A DNA stretch of 55,361 bases, taken from Candidatus Nanopelagicaceae bacterium (GTDB taxonomy: Archaea; Asgardarchaeota; Lokiarchaeia; Sigyniarchaeales; SOKP01). Below, one piece after another: positions 28,550 through 51,381 of this stretch. The stretch is from positions 1 to 55,361 of the forward strand of contig DATKTW010000106.1 of NCBI GenBank assembly GCA_035530895.1. Reading direction: 5' to 3'. Within the stretch, counting starts at the first letter, position 1; each line of letters opens with the position of its first letter. The translations under genes were made by a program, and so were the position numbers. The notes beneath the pieces are model-generated. The model saw only the letters and a program-made list of their open reading frames with translations. It did not search any database and was not told the origin of the DNA.

Positions 28550-28682
28550 GAATATAAATTTTGTTAGAATGAAAGAAAGTCAGAATTAAATACGTTCTTG
28601 ATATAATGTGAGAAAAAGAGAAATTTTAGATTTAAGCAATTCTTTCTAATATTATTCATAATACTAATTTTTGAGAATTTTT

Positions 28683-29477
28683 ATGGTAAAAACACTGGTT
28701 CTATACGATCAAATATATAATATCCCAAAAAAAGGCAATATCAAAGATATATCGATAAGATACCTTAAATATTTAAAAGAATTAACCCAGAGCTTTCCGG
28801 ACACCAAAATACATATTAAGAAATTAAGGAAATTTGATAATAGGTTTGAAATTCTCATATCAGGTTCCGAAGAAGTATTCATTTTAAACATACTAAAAAA
28901 AAAGATTGGGGCTATCCATGAATTTGATACTGTTAAGACAAACGATATCTTTAAAGGAGTCTTACTGGATGTAGGAAAAGTAGGCTTTGGAATTTTTGTA
29001 GACTGTGCCATTGTAAACCCTAAGGTAGATGTATTATTAAACCTCTATGACATACGAACTCAACTGTGTAATGGAAAAAATGTTTCATTGCCAGAAATTA
29101 TTAAGGCTTATGATTTTATTAATAAATTCCCTGTTTATATGAAAGTAGTTACGATAAATAAAGAAAAACAACAAATCCAAGGCATTTTGGATCAAAAAAC
29201 TTTAGACTTTTACGAAAAACTGATTTCAGAGAATCTCGAGGCGGTTTTTGTCAGTGGTGAAACTAAAGGTCAATTTAAAAAAGCACTTGTGAACACCGGT
29301 CATTTTCGAGACATTGTTTCAATAGAGCGATTCGGATTTTTAGAAAACATTGTAATATTAAGAGAATCTACTACTGCTCCAGGAATTATCGCAGATATAG
29401 GAAAACATCTTAAAAACTGCAAATTAAATGCAATTCGGCCCGAAAGAATTAAGAAATTATATAAATCGAAATTATAA
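28683..29477 (+). CDS. hypothetical protein
   Basis: 264-aa ORF from the ATG at 28683 (the track starts at the TTG at 28671). No family recognised. Confidence 0.5.
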   Translation: MVKTLVLYDQIYNIPKKGNIKDISIRYLKYLKELTQSFPDTKIHIKKLRKFDNRFEILISGSEEVFILNILKKKIGAIHEFDTVKTNDIFKGVLLDVGKVGFGIFVDCAIVNPKVDVLLNLYDIRTQLCNGKNVSLPEIIKAYDFINKFPVYMKVVTINKEKQQIQGILDQKTLDFYEKLISENLEAVFVSGETKGQFKKALVNTGHFRDIVSIERFGFLENIVILRESTTAPGIIADIGKHLKNCKLNAIRPERIKKLYKSKL

Positions 29478-29478
29478 A

Positions 29479-29642
29479 TGGTGGGCCCAGGGAGGTTTTC
29501 GATTAAGCGATACATTCGCTTAAAAATCGAACTCCCGAGCTTCTCGGTGTATTCTCGAATAAAGTATGTATTATACCATATTAGCGAGACGTATTTTATT
29601 CAATTTCTAAAAATTGAATCATAACCACTAGACCATGGGCCC
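29479..29642 (-). tRNA. tRNA-Val (anticodon UAC after splicing), three introns, CCA encoded
   Basis: - Acceptor GGGCCCA/TGGGCCC, followed by ACCA.
- D arm GTCT-AGTGGTTA-TGAC.
- T arm GGGAG/CTCCC.
- Removing three BHB-consistent inserts leaves a 76-nt cloverleaf with anticodon loop CTTACAC.
- The inserts are at plus coordinates 29593-29619 (D arm), 29552-29582 (anticodon loop after U33) and 29495-29525 (T loop 59/60). Confidence 0.8.
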
Positions 29643-29792
29643 TTTTTTTGGGTTATTTAAAATAATTATTTTACATTTTATTAATTTTTTTAATTAGTTT
29701 AACCTTTTGATTATTAGATGTTAAAACATAAGTATTTAAAGAAAAAAGCAATTCGTTCTCGATTTTAAAGTATTAACCTTTTAAACAATAAG

Positions 29793-29894
29793 CGCAATCG
29801 GAGGGATTCGAACCCTCGAGTCCATTGGACACCGGATTAGCAATCCGGCGCTTTTGACACGCTTAAGCGTTCTACCAAGCTAAGCGACGATTGC
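29793..29894 (-). tRNA. tRNA-Ser (GCU) with short D-loop intron
   Basis: - Acceptor GCAATCG/CGATTGC.
- Anticodon arm CCGGA-TTGCTAA-TCCGG.
- Long variable arm.
- T arm GAGGG-TTCGAAT-CCCTC.
- An 18-nt insert (29854-29871) with the ACGC-TTAA-GCGT hairpin interrupts the D loop. Confidence 0.8.
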
Positions 29895-30078
29895 TTAATG
29901 TTAGTATAAATTCCAAACGATATATTTTGTATATAAAAATTTAAAATTTTAATACTTTTTCATTGTATTGAGGAGATTATGTGAAAGGAAATTAATTCTT
30001 TAAATAAAAAAAAAGCTTAGATAATTCTAATAATAGAAGGAAAAAAAAGAAAAAAGAAAGTCGCTAACGAGAAATCAT

Positions 30079-30561
30079 TTATTCTTGGATGATCTCAAAA
30101 ACCATTTTCTCGATCATAGGTTTTTTTGTATACCGCTTATCGTAATACCAACCCACCATATGCCCCTCTAACTCCTTTTCTGGCATATGAGGAATTATAA
30201 TAATCATAACCCCGTTTGAAAGATATTTAAGTATCCTCTTATCAATTTGGTGCAGTTTATCGTTTCCAGATGGATGTGTGTGTGCCTGCCAGACTATATC
30301 TACGTTAAGTTCCTGTTTAAACTTACGCATGTTATAAATTTTTGACTTTTTATACCTCATCCAACTTCTTGGTTTTACGTGGGTTTTTGATTTTCTTAAA
30401 TCTGGATTAATGATAAATTTCTTAACAATTCCAAAGTTTTCTTTACGATCAGCAAAAATCCAATAGTGTTCGATATTTGGATAAACCTCTGCGGCTTTCT
30501 GGGTAATTTCTTTAAATAATCGATCTGGTATCAAATACCTAAAATTTTTTGCAGCACTCAT
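30079..30561 (-). CDS. JAB1/MPN/JAMM-like metalloprotease (variant motif)
   Basis: 160 aa. HTHPSGNDKLHQID fits HxHx7(S)xxD, but with His in the Ser position. An upstream Glu is present (NIEHYW). Confidence 0.5.
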   Translation of the reverse strand: MSAAKNFRYLIPDRLFKEITQKAAEVYPNIEHYWIFADRKENFGIVKKFIINPDLRKSKTHVKPRSWMRYKKSKIYNMRKFKQELNVDIVWQAHTHPSGNDKLHQIDKRILKYLSNGVMIIIIPHMPEKELEGHMVGWYYDKRYTKKPMIEKMVFEIIQE

Positions 30562-30808
30562 TTTTACATCATCTCAACTATGAGTCAATGTAACATAAAA
30601 TTTATATTTTTTCTTTAATGTCATCATAAAGGTTAGGAATTACGAGATTAAAATAAAAAGAAATTTATTTTATTAAAAATAAACTATTTTTATACCTATA
30701 ATACAATAATAAAAATAAAAAATTTCTACATATAGGCTAAAACTATATGCAGATAATTTTTAGGAATATTTTTCCATAATTATTCTGCGTAGAATTAAAA
30801 TAATTAGA

Positions 30809-30909
30809 GCACCTGTAGCCTAGTGGTAAGACGCTGGCCTTGAGTAGATAATACGATCAAGTAAGCCAGTGCGCGTAAGCGCTCGGGGGTTCAAATCCCT
30901 CCAGGTGCG
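30809..30909 (+). tRNA. tRNA-Ser (UGA) with canonical 37/38 intron
   Basis: - Acceptor GCACCTG/CAGGTGC.
- Anticodon stem CTGGC/GCCAG.
- Loop CTTGAG|intron|A.
- The 19-nt intron (30845-30863) forms a textbook BHB: CTTG pairs CAAG, with bulges AGT and TAA.
- Long variable arm GCGC-GTAA-GCGC. Confidence 0.85.
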
Positions 30910-30934
30910 TTTTCAATGGCAACCAATACTAAAT

Positions 30935-31038
30935 GGGCTATTAGCGCAGTCAGGTAGCGCATCCGGCTCTTAACCGGCAGGTCGGGGGTTCGATACCTCC
31001 ATTCAGAAAGCATGGAGGCGAAATTCCCTCATAGCCCG
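30935..31038 (+). tRNA. tRNA-Lys (CUU) with T-loop intron at 59/60
   Basis: - Acceptor GGGCTAT/ATAGCCC.
- D arm GCGC-AGTCAGGTA-GCGC.
- Anticodon loop CTCTTAA.
- The T arm GGGGG...CCCTC is interrupted by a 30-nt insert (30995-31024) with a perfect BHB: TTCG pairs CGAA, bulges ATA and ATT, inner hairpin CCTCCAT/ATGGAGG.
- The spliced T loop is TTCGATT. Confidence 0.85.
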
Positions 31039-31070: not shown

Positions 31071-32024
31071 TTATAAATATTGGAATATTACTTCAAAATC
31101 AGAGAAATCAAAAGGTTTTAAAATGTAACCATCAGCATTACTTTCTTCGAGATGCTTTTCTACTTCTGAACCTGGTATAGCAGTTAACAAATAAACCGAA
31201 ATGTTTTGATGCTCTTTACTTGATTTAATCTGTTTGCAGATATCATAACCACTATAATCAGGTAAAATAATATCAAGCAATACCAACTTAGGTGGGTTAT
31301 TTGCTAGCTCTTCCAATCCTTTTGTTCCACTTACTACCCCCTTACAGGAAAAACCTTTGCTTTCAAAATAGCTTGTTAATAAACGAATAGTAGCTAAATC
31401 ATCTTCAATTAATAATATATCGTATTGAAGAGTTTCTGTTTTTATATTGTCCAGAATGTTGATAATTTTCTTCTCTAAAAGTAGAGATTGATTAAATATA
31501 TTTTGAATGGTATTAAAAACACTTTCGTCCATTTCATCACGATAATTTTCAATCAATAGCTGAGAAAATCCTTTGATTGACGTTAACGGTTCCTTTAGAG
31601 CATGCGATATGTTTGTGAGAGTTTGATTGTTTATTTTATGCAAATCTTCATTGATTAGAGTGGATTCTTGCTTAATAAAATAGTTAACACTCTCCCGTAT
31701 AAGTTTGGAAATGGTGTTATATTTATTTTTATGAGTTTTTATAAACTTGCTCCACTCTTCTTTGGTTTTGTCAGTTACATACAAGGAAATGCGCTCCTTT
31801 TCTCTGTCGTATATTTTTTCTCCTTTAAGCCATTTCATAAAACCTTCTGTTATGTTTCCACGCCATTTAGCATACTTATCCGTTGTGTCCTCATACTCCC
31901 TCATTAGTTTTTTCGCTTGTTCGCTATTCAAATCCAGATTATTTATTTCTTCGTCAGTCATATTTGGACTTGTGTGATTTTCCTTACCATTAGAATTACT
32001 ATCGTTCTTTTTTTCGTTAGGCAT
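31071..32024 (-). CDS. RHH-like domain + HisKA (H-box) + receiver domain protein, no HATPase domain
   Basis: - H-box ISHALKEPLTSIKGFSQLL.
- Complete REC domain (LIEDD, VLLDIILPD, LLTA, ILKPF) directly after the dimerisation helices.
- N-terminal ERISLYVTDKTKEEWSKFI...ISKLIRESVNYFI looks like a ribbon-helix-helix. Confidence 0.7.
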   Translation of the reverse strand: MPNEKKNDSNSNGKENHTSPNMTDEEINNLDLNSEQAKKLMREYEDTTDKYAKWRGNITEGFMKWLKGEKIYDREKERISLYVTDKTKEEWSKFIKTHKNKYNTISKLIRESVNYFIKQESTLINEDLHKINNQTLTNISHALKEPLTSIKGFSQLLIENYRDEMDESVFNTIQNIFNQSLLLEKKIINILDNIKTETLQYDILLIEDDLATIRLLTSYFESKGFSCKGVVSGTKGLEELANNPPKLVLLDIILPDYSGYDICKQIKSSKEHQNISVYLLTAIPGSEVEKHLEESNADGYILKPFDFSDFEVIFQYL

Positions 32025-32275: not shown

Positions 32276-33184
32276 TTATTTCACTTTTCCATTTAAAATT
32301 TCAAAAATAACTCCAAAATCAGAAAAATTAAATGGTTTAAGAATGTATCCATCAGCGAGTGTCGCATTTAAACGTTTTTTTATTTCTGATGCGGATATCG
32401 CTGTTAAAAAGTAAACTGGTATCTTTTTGTAAGTATTATCAGTTTTTATAGTCTGACATATATCATACCCACTTAAATCAGGTAAAATTATGTCTAGCAA
32501 TATAACTTTTGGGACCATCCTTCTTAATTCCTCTAAACCCTTTGTCCCACTTACAACTCCCTTACAGATGTAATGTTTACTTTCAAAATAGCTTGTTATT
32601 AACCGGATTGTTGCCAAATCATCTTCAATTAATAAAATGTCGTAGGGAGTACCTTCAGGTTGAATATTGTCTAAGAAATTTTTTATAATGTTTTCTAGCA
32701 GATTACTCTGATCGAAAATATTTTTTATTGTTTCCTCAACATGCTCACTTAAGTTAGCTTTATATTCATCGCTTTCAAGAAGTAATTGGGAATAACCTTT
32801 AATAGATGTAAGGGGTTCTTTTAAGGCGTGAGAGATGTTGGATATGGTACTCGGGTTCAATTTAGACAGTTCATTTGAAACTCTACTCGAATCTTCTATA
32901 AATGACTTAACACTTTGTCTTATTAACTCTGAAAAACTAGGAAAGGACTCTTTGTTTTTATTTATAAATTTTTGCCATTCTCCTTTAATCTTATCGTCAA
33001 CATATAAAGATATTCTTTCCTTGTCTCGCGTATAAATTTTTTCGCCTTTTAACCATTTTTTAAAACCTTCAGTTATCGCTCCTCTCCAAACTGCGTACTT
33101 ATCGTTCTCTTCTTTGTATTTTTTCATGTATTGCTTTATTTTTTCGTCGTTAAGATTAATATTTTCTATTTCTTTTTCGCTCAT
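32276..33184 (-). CDS. RHH-like domain + HisKA (H-box) + receiver domain protein (paralogue of 31071-32024)
   Basis: Same architecture: ERISLYVDDKIKGEWQKFI...FSELIRQSVKSFI, ISHALKEPLTSIKGYSQLL, and REC with LIEDD / ILLDIILPD / ILKPF. Confidence 0.7.
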   Translation of the reverse strand: MSEKEIENINLNDEKIKQYMKKYKEENDKYAVWRGAITEGFKKWLKGEKIYTRDKERISLYVDDKIKGEWQKFINKNKESFPSFSELIRQSVKSFIEDSSRVSNELSKLNPSTISNISHALKEPLTSIKGYSQLLLESDEYKANLSEHVEETIKNIFDQSNLLENIIKNFLDNIQPEGTPYDILLIEDDLATIRLITSYFESKHYICKGVVSGTKGLEELRRMVPKVILLDIILPDLSGYDICQTIKTDNTYKKIPVYFLTAISASEIKKRLNATLADGYILKPFNFSDFGVIFEILNGKVK

Positions 33185-48167: not shown

Positions 48168-48333
48168 GCGCGAGTGGTTTAGACGTATAACGACACTTTC
48201 TAACGTGTTATTTTGGAAAGCGTTAAACGCTCACACCGTGTAAATTTTCGCTAATTCAAGGCGTCAATCTCGACGGTCGGGGGTTCAAAAGTCTGAAAAA
48301 TTCTTTTAAACTGAAAAATTCCCCCCTTGCGCA
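48168..48333 (+). tRNA. tRNA-like gene with multiple inserts, possibly tRNA-Val (CAC); exon structure unresolved
   Basis: - Acceptor GCGCGAG/CTTGCGC (one G-U pair).
- TGGTTTAG resembles the Val gene's TGGTCTAG.
- Candidate anticodon arm AAACG-CTCACAC-CGTGT.
- The T arm GGGGG-TTCAA...TT-CCCCC is split by about 30 nt (about 48290-48319).
- I could not derive a fully canonical D arm. Confidence 0.5.
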
Positions 48334-50235: not shown

Positions 50236-51381
50236 ATGGCAGAAGAAGAAAGTTTTTTAAACGCGAAAGCCTTGGTGGTTGATAACGGAACTGGAATCTC
50301 CAAGAATGGCTTCGCTGGTGAAGACCAACCTCGTTCTGTATTTCCAACTCTTATTGGCTATCCAAAATATGAATCGATAATGACTGATGTTGAGCATTAC
50401 ACTCGTGAATACTATATCGGAGAAGAAGCAATGCAATTAAAAGGTGTTCTTAAGTTAATGTTTCCCGTAGAACATGGTATTATCGAAGATTGGACCGCAA
50501 TGGAAAAGATTTGGCATTACACTTTTTATACAGACTTGAGAATCGATCCTAGCGAACACCCGGTTCTATTAACTGAAGCTCCATTAAACCCTAGACCAAA
50601 CCGAGAAAAAATGGCTGAAATTATGTTTGAAACCTTTAATGTTCCAGCCCTTTATGTAGCAATGCAAGCAGTTTTGTCGCTATATGCTTCTGGTCGTACA
50701 ACGGGATGCGTCATAGATATTGGGGATGGAGTCTCTCACGTAGTACCTATTTTCGAAGGCTTTGCTCTAAGTCATGCAATCCAAAGAATCGATCTTGCTG
50801 GCCGTGATATCACAACGTACCTACAAAGATTACTCCGACAAAAAGGATACTCCTTTACAACTTCTGCAGAGAAAGAAATTGTTAGAGATATCAAAGAAAA
50901 ACTCTGCTATGTAGCAATCGATCCAGAGAAAGAAATGATGCTTTCAAAGAAAGTTGCTGGAATGGAAAAAAGCTACATGCTTCCTGACGGAGAAACTATA
51001 AATGTAGGTGTCGAACGATTTTTAGCACCTGAATGCTTCTTCAATCCATCAGTAATCGGGAAAGAATTAGAACCTCTCGATGATGTAATTGTCGGTGCTA
51101 TTTCAGAATGTGATGTCGACCTTCGTAGAGACCTTTATGGCAATATTGTACTTTCTGGTGGTTCAACAATGTTCCCTGGAATCAAGGAAAGATTAACAAA
51201 AGAAATTAAAGAACAGATTCCAGAATCAGTTGATGTCAAGATTATAGCCCCTCCAGAACGTATGTATTCCGTATGGATTGGTGGTTCAATCTTAAGTTCC
51301 TTGAAAACATTCCACAGAATGTGGGTAACTAGAAGGGAATATAAAGAAATGGGACCACAAGTCATTCACAGATGCTTCTAA
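50236..51381 (+). CDS. actin homologue (lokiactin-like)
   Basis: 381 aa, colinear with eukaryotic actin. Matching segments: [88 protein letters not shown], and GGSTMFPG...[16 protein letters not shown]. Confidence 0.9.

Follow-up and report, generated by a model that had tools for sequence, protein, structure and literature searches.

The stretch analysed here, which we call the window, is the 55,361-nt contig DATKTW010000106.1 (assembly GCA_035530895.1) of a Lokiarchaeial (Promethearchaeota) Asgard archaeon. It encodes five tRNA genes (Val-UAC, Ser-GCU, Ser-UGA, Lys-CUU, and Val-CAC), which together contain nine introns, only one of them at the canonical position 37/38. We interpret these inserts as ordinary archaeal bulge-helix-bulge (BHB) tRNA introns, with a shared architecture that is kept up by compensatory changes and with frequent turnover, and we give this reading a probability of about 0.85. 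Two of the introns, those of Val-UAC and Lys-CUU, have exactly 30 nt and interrupt the T loop at the same position, 59/60. They are one instance of a rule that extends over the lineage, by which most T-loop introns are 30 nt long.

We identified the introns by reading the sequence and applying the archaeal BHB geometry, i.e., a central 4-bp helix (H) flanked by two 3-nt bulges, with cleavage after the second nucleotide of the bulge. The raw window gives no tRNA gene with ARAGORN in default mode, and one complete and two truncated tRNA matches with Rfam, all between 29.8 and 31.0 kb. Once the nine predicted introns are deleted, ARAGORN calls five of five genes, as Val(tac), Ser(gct), Ser(tga), Lys(ctt), and Val(cac). 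All five spliced products are perfect cloverleaves with sensible anticodons, and the restoration of a canonical cloverleaf is what one expects from the removal of archaeal BHB introns. The intron mode of ARAGORN was not used for the survey, as it wrongly assigns Ser-GCU to Asp(gtc) and Ser-UGA to Ile(aat). A first-pass annotation had proposed that every tRNA gene in the window is interrupted, naming four clustered genes and a more distant one at 48168–48333, and that a single intron occupies 37/38. These proposals hold: the five genes become callable after splicing, the 37/38 intron is that of Ser-UGA (one of nine), and neither a scan for GC islands and T arms nor a permissive Rfam search revealed other tRNA genes in the window.

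The BHB geometry, with H and the two 3-nt bulges on opposite strands, fits the nine sites, and H has four of four pairs at six of them. When the Lys-CUU and Ser-UGA precursors are folded by minimum free energy without constraints, their BHB motifs appear, exactly so for Lys-CUU. In the fold that we propose for the precursors, a stretch of four exon nucleotides would pair with four nucleotides near the 3′ end of the intron to form H. The splicing endonuclease would cut after the second nucleotide of each bulge, and an RNA ligase would then join the exons. At 59/60, the exon strand of H is the near-universal T54-T55-C56-R57, with YGAA supplied by the intron; at 58/59, it is G53-T54-T55-C56, with GAAY supplied by the intron. 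Excision of the nine introns in vivo would follow this path. Asgard archaea, including a Lokiarchaeote, have an (αβ)2 endonuclease (EndA) with an L1 loop that confers broad specificity (PMC5829648), and by analogy with these genomes the enzyme acting here is probably of the same type.

Alleles with and without the introns

The gene adjoining Val-UAC encodes a DUF2110 protein (28671–29477), whose homologues are 47–96% identical and occur in 69 assemblies, almost all from Promethearchaeota/Promethearchaeia and a few from Thor-, Hermod-, and Hodarchaeota. The cluster of Val-UAC, Ser-GCU, Ser-UGA, and Lys-CUU is syntenic beside this gene in the 69 assemblies and in 10 near-identical metagenome contigs, and 80 metagenome contigs preserve the place of Val-CAC upstream of Hef. 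Our survey thus covered five tRNA families at two syntenic loci in about 150 Lokiarchaeial contigs; the related loci and contigs are designated by L-numbers (L006, L037, and so on). The predicted mature tRNAs were aligned to each locus by a splice-aware dynamic programme that allowed any insertion of at least 10 nt, and the junctions were refined by the BHB score. Intron counts given below are of distinct sequences, which are not independent events, since many contigs are closely related.

For each intron there are orthologues in the related contigs that lack it precisely at the predicted junction, as documented for Lys-CUU, for Val-UAC (in several combinations), and for Val-CAC, so that the comparison of orthologous genes suggested by the first-pass annotation yielded alleles of both kinds. 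The exons of Lys-CUU are 100% identical in L012, which has the intron, and in L013, L014, L015, and L035, which lack it. Val-UAC has three introns in the window and in L035, two in L011, L012, L017, L019, L020, and L022, one in L013–L015, L021, L016, L018, and L023, and none at many loci. Intron-less Val-CAC genes occur in L103 and L153 and match the predicted mature sequence at 95% and 92%. The literature has called for such snapshots of how introns are gained and lost (PMC4033280), and near-identical alleles with and without an intron provide them.

The distribution of introns is a mosaic among close relatives and does not track relatedness, as judged by the identity of neighbouring proteins. 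For example, the Val-UAC intron at 23/24 is kept by L035 (90% identity of neighbouring proteins) and missing from L011 and L012 (94–96%). Judging from these alignments, precise loss of introns, or exchange of alleles, must be frequent. In our model of turnover, introns would be gained and, above all, precisely lost often enough to produce the mosaic.

A fixed architecture for T-loop introns

Introns at 58/59 or 59/60 were found in all five tRNA families, and no other non-canonical site is common to the five. Among the 83 distinct T-loop introns (58/59 and 59/60 taken together), 67 have exactly 30 nt, and all have 28–32 nt. The recurrence of site and length noticed in the first-pass annotation therefore extends well beyond the window. 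More broadly, the 176 distinct non-canonical introns, with the 36/37 and Ser-GCU 22/23 classes set aside, all fall within 27–34 nt; 91 sequences lie at a first mode of 30 nt and 40 at a second of 32 nt. For canonical 37/38 introns the usual lengths are 19, 22, or 23 nt, and Ser-GCU 22/23 introns have 19–22 nt. A separate regular-expression scan, which required the T stem, TTCRA, a 4-bp H, and the acceptor stem and allowed 12–89 nt, gave 49 of 52 matches at 29–30 nt in the 59/60 register and 20 of 24 at 30–32 nt in the 58/59 register, the rest being scattered noise. Its apparent matches at 57/58 were discarded as false positives.

The 30-nt introns have a constant layout. Position 1 is the third nucleotide of a bulge, positions 2–10 pair with 24–16 to form a 9-bp stem closed by a 5-nt loop (11–15), positions 25–28 are the intron strand of the central helix, and positions 29–30 are bulge nucleotides. 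Introns of 30 nt at Val-UAC 23/24 and 33/34 have the same succession of 9, 5, and 9 nucleotides. To test this layout, we aligned 42 distinct 59/60 T arms, taken from the five families, without gaps. In this alignment 93.8% of the cells are paired, against 68.6% in shuffles (none of 500 shuffles reaches 93.8%), and sliding the partner strand by one to three positions leaves only 40–62% paired. The covariation score is 0.714 (0.226 in shuffles), and each of the nine inner-stem pairs changes on both sides. Position 57 of the T loop itself covaries with its partner in the intron (G:C in 26 cases, A:U in 11). The conservation of structure rather than sequence among homologous introns, which is typical of BHB introns, is thus clear in these 42 arms. 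The loop has some sequence preference across families: of 67 introns, 56 have A at the first loop position and 66 have C or A at the last. In our model, the identity of length would reflect a single architecture used throughout the lineage (1 + 9-bp stem + 5-nt loop + 9 + 4 + 2 = 30 nt), which would be maintained by compensatory substitution, recent sequence identity not being the cause.

These data bear on the view that the inserts are not spliced at all, the five genes being either disrupted pseudogenes or sources of tRNA-like RNAs whose loops are expanded. It could be argued from the failure of ARAGORN and Rfam on the raw genes, of which they recover parts at best, and from the peculiarities of Val-CAC, whose D loop lacks G18G19 and whose T-loop BHB is mismatched. 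However, more than 10 contigs have exons that are 100% conserved and introns that vary through compensatory changes, the loci are syntenic orthologues of intron-less genes in relatives, the BHB covaries (including the intron bases that track position 57), and the predicted spliced products fold into perfect cloverleaves. We therefore regard the absence of splicing as highly improbable, and BHB introns as the far better description of these inserts.

A different question is whether the length of 30 nt is imposed purely by the splicing machinery, in which case independent insertions would have converged on a 9-bp stem and a 5-nt loop that are cut or ligated efficiently at sites outside the anticodon loop. 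The first-pass annotation had offered a constraint of the endonuclease as one of two explanations. Such a constraint explains the 4-bp helix and the 3-nt bulges; the fixed 9-bp/5-nt hairpin does not obviously follow from it. The recurrence of the architecture at 23/24, 33/34, 58/59, and 59/60 in different tRNAs with unrelated sequences would fit a convergence of this sort. So would the lengths in two other Asgard classes, Atabeyarchaeia and Freyarchaeia: in the part of Supplementary Data 4 of PMC11291895 from which we recomputed them, the median length of non-canonical introns is 28 nt and the mode 28–30 nt, with many near mature position 59–61. On the other hand, the 19-nt introns found at other sites in the same genomes are presumably cut by the same enzyme and thus argue against a simple length rule, as do the Ser-GCU 22/23 introns (19–22 nt) and those at 36/37 and 37/38 (15–25 nt). 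Moreover, recognition by archaeal EndA generally depends on the BHB as such, and intron interiors of any kind are tolerated. A purely enzymatic origin of the length is in our opinion rather unlikely.

Genes and introns of the window

The gene of tRNA-Val(UAC) is on the minus strand at 29479–29642, including an encoded CCA, and has three introns. The first, at 23/24 in the D arm (27 nt, 29593–29619), has an H of GTTA/TAAA with three of four pairs and a 9-bp inner stem, and is precisely absent in L006 and L011–L015. The second (31 nt, 29552–29582) lies in the anticodon loop at the non-canonical site 33/34, has four of four pairs in H (CTCG/CGAG), and is precisely absent in L013–L016, L018, and L021. 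The third, at 59/60 (30 nt, 29496–29525), has an H of TTCG/CGAA, the 5-bp T stem as outer helix, and an inner stem with eight of nine pairs closed by a 5-nt loop; it is absent in L016–L020. The intron of tRNA-Lys(CUU), a gene on the plus strand (30935–31038) whose partial Rfam match ends at the T loop, is also at 59/60 (30 nt, 30995–31024). It has the same TTCG/CGAA helix on a 5-bp T stem and forms a perfect hBHBh′ motif, with two 3-nt bulges and an inner stem of seven consecutive base pairs; eight of nine inner positions are paired, the single mismatch being at 9:17. The first-pass annotation had described these two introns as 30-nt inserts at 59/60 with a common helix and different interiors, which is accurate except that its interval for Val (29495–29525) starts one nucleotide early.

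The CCA of Val-UAC is encoded at 29479–29481, and the other four genes have no encoded CCA. The close relatives L013, L015, and L035 have TTA at this place, and the encoded CCA may be coincidental. Five other loci (L049, L052, L061, L066, and L067) have a Val-UAC intron of 31–33 nt at 53/54, where T stem and T loop meet, instead of 59/60; its H uses bases of the T stem, GGAG being paired with CCCG or CTCG.

The two serine genes have one intron of 19 nt each. That of tRNA-Ser(GCU) (29793–29894, minus strand; partial Rfam match) is at 22/23 in the D arm (19 nt, 29853–29871), with an H of TGGT/GTCA (four pairs, two of them G-U) and an inner hairpin ACGC-TTAA-GCGT, and is lacking in many orthologues. 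An AT-rich spacer of about 150 bp (29643–29792) separates this gene from Val-UAC in the window and in L035, and only about 25 nt do so in L006 and L012–L016. The intron of tRNA-Ser(UGA) (30809–30909, plus strand; Rfam match of 47 bits) is the canonical one (37/38, 19 nt, 30845–30863), with an H of CTTG/CAAG and the anticodon stem as outer helix. The D stem of this tRNA has a C11·A24 mismatch (GCCT...AGAC), and its AAGACGC is kept in all the relatives inspected (L011–L079).

The interrupted gene at 48168–48333 (plus strand) is tRNA-Val(CAC). The first-pass annotation had left it as a tRNA-like gene with about 30 nt in its T loop; the insert is there, at 58/59 rather than 59/60. The first of its three introns, at 28/29 (32 nt, 48195–48226), has an H of AACG/CGTT with four of four pairs, an inner stem of 8 bp, and no outer helix (HBh′ type), and is absent in L093–L095. 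The second, at 44/45 in the variable loop (32 nt, 48243–48274), has three of four pairs in H (CGTG/CTCG); its splicing restores the variable loop AGGTC, and orthologues with and without it occur. The third, at 58/59 (30 nt, 48289–48318), also has three of four pairs (GTTC/GAAA, with a G·A mismatch), together with a 9-bp inner stem and a 5-nt loop. Its intron strand is GAAT or GAAC in relatives, and this register yields a 7-nt T loop, TTCAATT. A 5-bp ambiguity of register, GTTCA/TGAAC (48284–48322 in the window), is common to all 58/59 introns in the relatives.

Two further observations concern Val-CAC. We considered whether it is a class II, Leu-like tRNA, with CGTC-AATCTC-GACG resembling a long variable arm, and rejected this: a 32-nt BHB intron at 44/45 accounts for the segment and restores AGGTC, and the intron-less orthologues L103 and L153 confirm the identity as Val-CAC. 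The D loop of the mature tRNA (about 48181–48187) is AGACGTA, without the near-universal G18G19; it is AGTGGCTA in the intron-less L103 and L153 and AGCCGTA in L093–L095. Twelve related contigs and the window, 13 sequences in all, have 100% identical exons and variable introns, and from this contrast the gene appears to be under selection.

The first-pass annotation had also pointed to short GC palindromes around TTAA or TAA in several introns. The palindromes are present, and they do not make up a shared motif, a possibility that we rejected because they are hairpin stems or a junction artefact and their sequences are not conserved among relatives. The Ser-GCU intron has ACGCTTAAGCGT as its inner hairpin stem, the Val-UAC 59/60 intron has TTAAGCGA...TCGCTTAA in the same role, and the one composed of AGCGTTAA and the ACGCT after it spans the 3′ junction of the Val-CAC 28/29 intron.

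The host is an archaeon with about 32% GC. A 381-aa protein encoded at 50236–51381 (plus strand; Pfam Actin, E = 9e-133) is a lokiactin, an Asgard signature protein, and points, like the DUF2110 homologues, to a Lokiarchaeial genome. An archaeal exosome/proteasome cluster and Hef are encoded in the window as well. Between Ser-GCU and Ser-UGA, a 160-aa open reading frame (30079–30561, minus strand) is identical on 13 metagenome contigs from several samples and has no match in Pfam or NCBIfam. Next to Lys-CUU, two adjacent genes on the minus strand (31071–32024 and 32276–33184) encode paralogous proteins that each have HisKA and receiver domains; an HATPase domain was detected in neither.

Origin of the introns and relation to known systems

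The other explanation put forward in the first-pass annotation was transposition, and the view that the Val-UAC and Lys-CUU introns of the window are recent copies within one genome deserves attention. They share the site, the 30 nt, and the TTCG/CGAA helix; copying between Lys-CUU and Ser-UGA is documented in relatives (see below); and transposed introns are described in Thermoproteales (Fujishima 2010, cited in PMC4090602). However, in the 36 pairwise comparisons of the nine window introns we found no significant similarity (best uncorrected p = 0.01). The two introns at 59/60 have in common only the structurally forced tail CGAAA and are not among the eight best-scoring pairs of the 36. In addition, each intron is matched at its site by clear orthologues in genomes with about 73% identity of neighbouring proteins (L021 for Val; L018, L019, and L021 for Lys), which indicates that the two are old and have evolved separately. 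Recent transposition between these introns is thus very unlikely, and orthologous BHB introns maintained over long periods describe them better.

Highly similar introns in different tRNA species or positions of one genome, which identify transposed introns (Fujishima et al. 2010), were found in relatives only. In L037, the Lys-CUU and Ser-UGA introns at 59/60 are identical at 24 of 30 positions and align with a score of 15; the highest score among 20,000 shuffled comparisons is 11. Related pairs from the same two genes occur in L027, L038, and L055. At these four loci the two genes are adjacent and their T arms almost identical, a pattern that fits gene conversion. The likeness of the introns indicates that copying of T-loop introns between different tRNA genes does occur in the lineage, so this part of the transposition proposal is retained. 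L037 (JAHQWK/NJBH-type loci) has a 30-nt T-loop intron in all four tRNAs of the cluster (Val-UAC, Ser-GCU, Ser-UGA, and Lys-CUU), which looks like a burst of intron copying within one genome. A few similarities between Val-CAC introns at 58/59 and 44/45 also exceed the null, but they involve AT-rich hairpins.

The T loop would be a hot spot, we infer, owing to the nearly universal sequence (TTCR or GTTC) of the exon strand of H at this place: an intron docking there would be spliceable in any tRNA. A copy that reached a second tRNA gene, for instance through gene conversion where T arms are near-identical, would stay spliceable, and the site would recur.

One may go further and suppose that the introns of about 30 nt are a single family of mobile mini-introns that descend from a common ancestor, having inherited their length and an A-W-W-W-C/A loop, possibly functional, while their stems diverged by compensatory changes. 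The bias of the loop across families (A at position 1 in 56 of 67, C or A at position 5 in 66 of 67), the cross-gene and cross-site similarities above the shuffled null (Lys-CUU/Ser-UGA; Val-CAC 58/59 and 44/45), and the mosaic presence among close relatives are in line with this idea. Yet most pairs from different families are dissimilar, and the AT-richness of the genome inflates chance likeness between hairpins. Moreover, we found in the window neither a candidate mobilising enzyme nor intron copies outside tRNA genes: none of the nine introns has an extra copy elsewhere in it, and a window-wide scan for the hairpin-BHB design outside tRNA genes gave 36 matches, with 26–32 in shuffles and thus no enrichment. 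Common descent of the 30-nt introns is a possibility that we entertain tentatively. Its strongest form would have a single family of 30-nt hairpin mini-introns (9-bp stem, 5-nt A-W-W-W-C/A loop, 4-nt docking strand) spreading between tRNA genes of Lokiarchaeia, perhaps of Asgards generally, above all into the T loop, with a size and loop fixed by a dedicated factor or by a function of the excised circular RNA and not by the needs of the endonuclease alone. We consider this version doubtful.

Some observations weigh against our own interpretation of the inserts as ordinary BHB introns with a portable T-loop site. H is mismatched in three of the nine BHBs (three of four pairs at Val-UAC 23/24, Val-CAC 44/45, and Val-CAC 58/59). 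The T-loop intron of Val-CAC has an alternative register with a perfect BHB (TTCA/TGAA, 28 nt), which would leave a T loop of 9 nt; we rejected it, since T loops of orthologues have 7 nt and the relatives pair GAAT or GAAC at 58/59. Scans with Pfam and NCBIfam profiles found no gene for the splicing endonuclease (EndA) or the ligase (RtcB) in the 55-kb window. To our knowledge, nothing known of EndA accounts for an inner stem of 9 bp with a 5-nt loop. Finally, portability predicts that T-loop introns of different genes should resemble each other more often than they do, because only the Lys-CUU/Ser-UGA pairs and a few AT-rich ones stand out.

A close parallel is found in Thermoproteales, where non-canonical BHB introns are textbook knowledge, occur at 59/60 among other sites, and number up to three per gene, and where similar introns in different tRNAs have been read as evidence of transposition (PMC4090602, PMC4033280, PMC8450103). 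The site 59/60 is itself listed as a known non-canonical position (PMC4090602). The resemblance extends to the site 22/23, the relaxed BHB variants, and the speed with which introns are gained and lost among relatives (Sugahara 2008; Fujishima 2010; reviews: PMC4090602, PMC4033280). Unlike the window's host, which is a low-GC Asgard lineage, these organisms are hyperthermophilic crenarchaea. The window has 1.8 introns per gene (a small sample), against an average of 0.84 in Thermoproteales (PMC8450103), for which we found no description of a tight 30-nt design with a 9-bp/5-nt hairpin.

Within Asgards, 92–95% of the tRNA genes of Atabeyarchaeia and Freyarchaeia have introns, often non-canonical and multiple, and more than half have several, mostly at non-canonical positions (Valentin-Alvarado et al. 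2024, PMC11291895). These are different Asgard classes, and the lengths given there are broader (10–67 nt). Since the tables of that report peak at 28–30 nt, with many introns near 59–61, a T-loop intron of about 30 nt is probably Asgard-wide and implicit in them; the text consulted takes up neither a hot spot in the T loop nor a constant architecture nor alleles that differ in intron presence. Ectopic BHB introns of Cyanidioschyzon merolae and of nucleomorphs (PMC3728597, PMC4090602) are similar in their D- and T-arm sites, their number per gene, and their BHB-dependent recognition. They differ in having a eukaryotic host and endonuclease and other lengths and positions, and the similarity does not imply homology. 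The split and permuted tRNA genes of Nanoarchaeum, Caldivirga, and Desulfurococcales (PMC3218864, PMC4033280) follow the same logic of BHB processing, with break points at frequent intron sites, whereas the five genes of the window are contiguous and collinear, and we saw no trans-splicing or permutation.

The kind of intron, the site 59/60, tRNA genes with several introns, and the intron-richness of Asgard tRNA genes are thus already published. The regularity of length and architecture is what we did not find described: our literature search returned no mention of a fixed architecture or of a T-loop hot spot. The introns of the window do not reveal a new type of element or mechanism, and the additional regularity is modest. 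The findings have practical and evolutionary implications. All five genes are missed or mis-called by standard finders (ARAGORN; fragments only with Rfam), and automatically annotated Lokiarchaeial genomes will therefore appear short of tRNAs. It has been noted that Asgard tRNA sets are incompletely predicted owing to disrupted genes (PMC5829648). The fixed 30-nt design raises a testable question on what limits or propagates introns in the archaeal lineage closest to eukaryotes.

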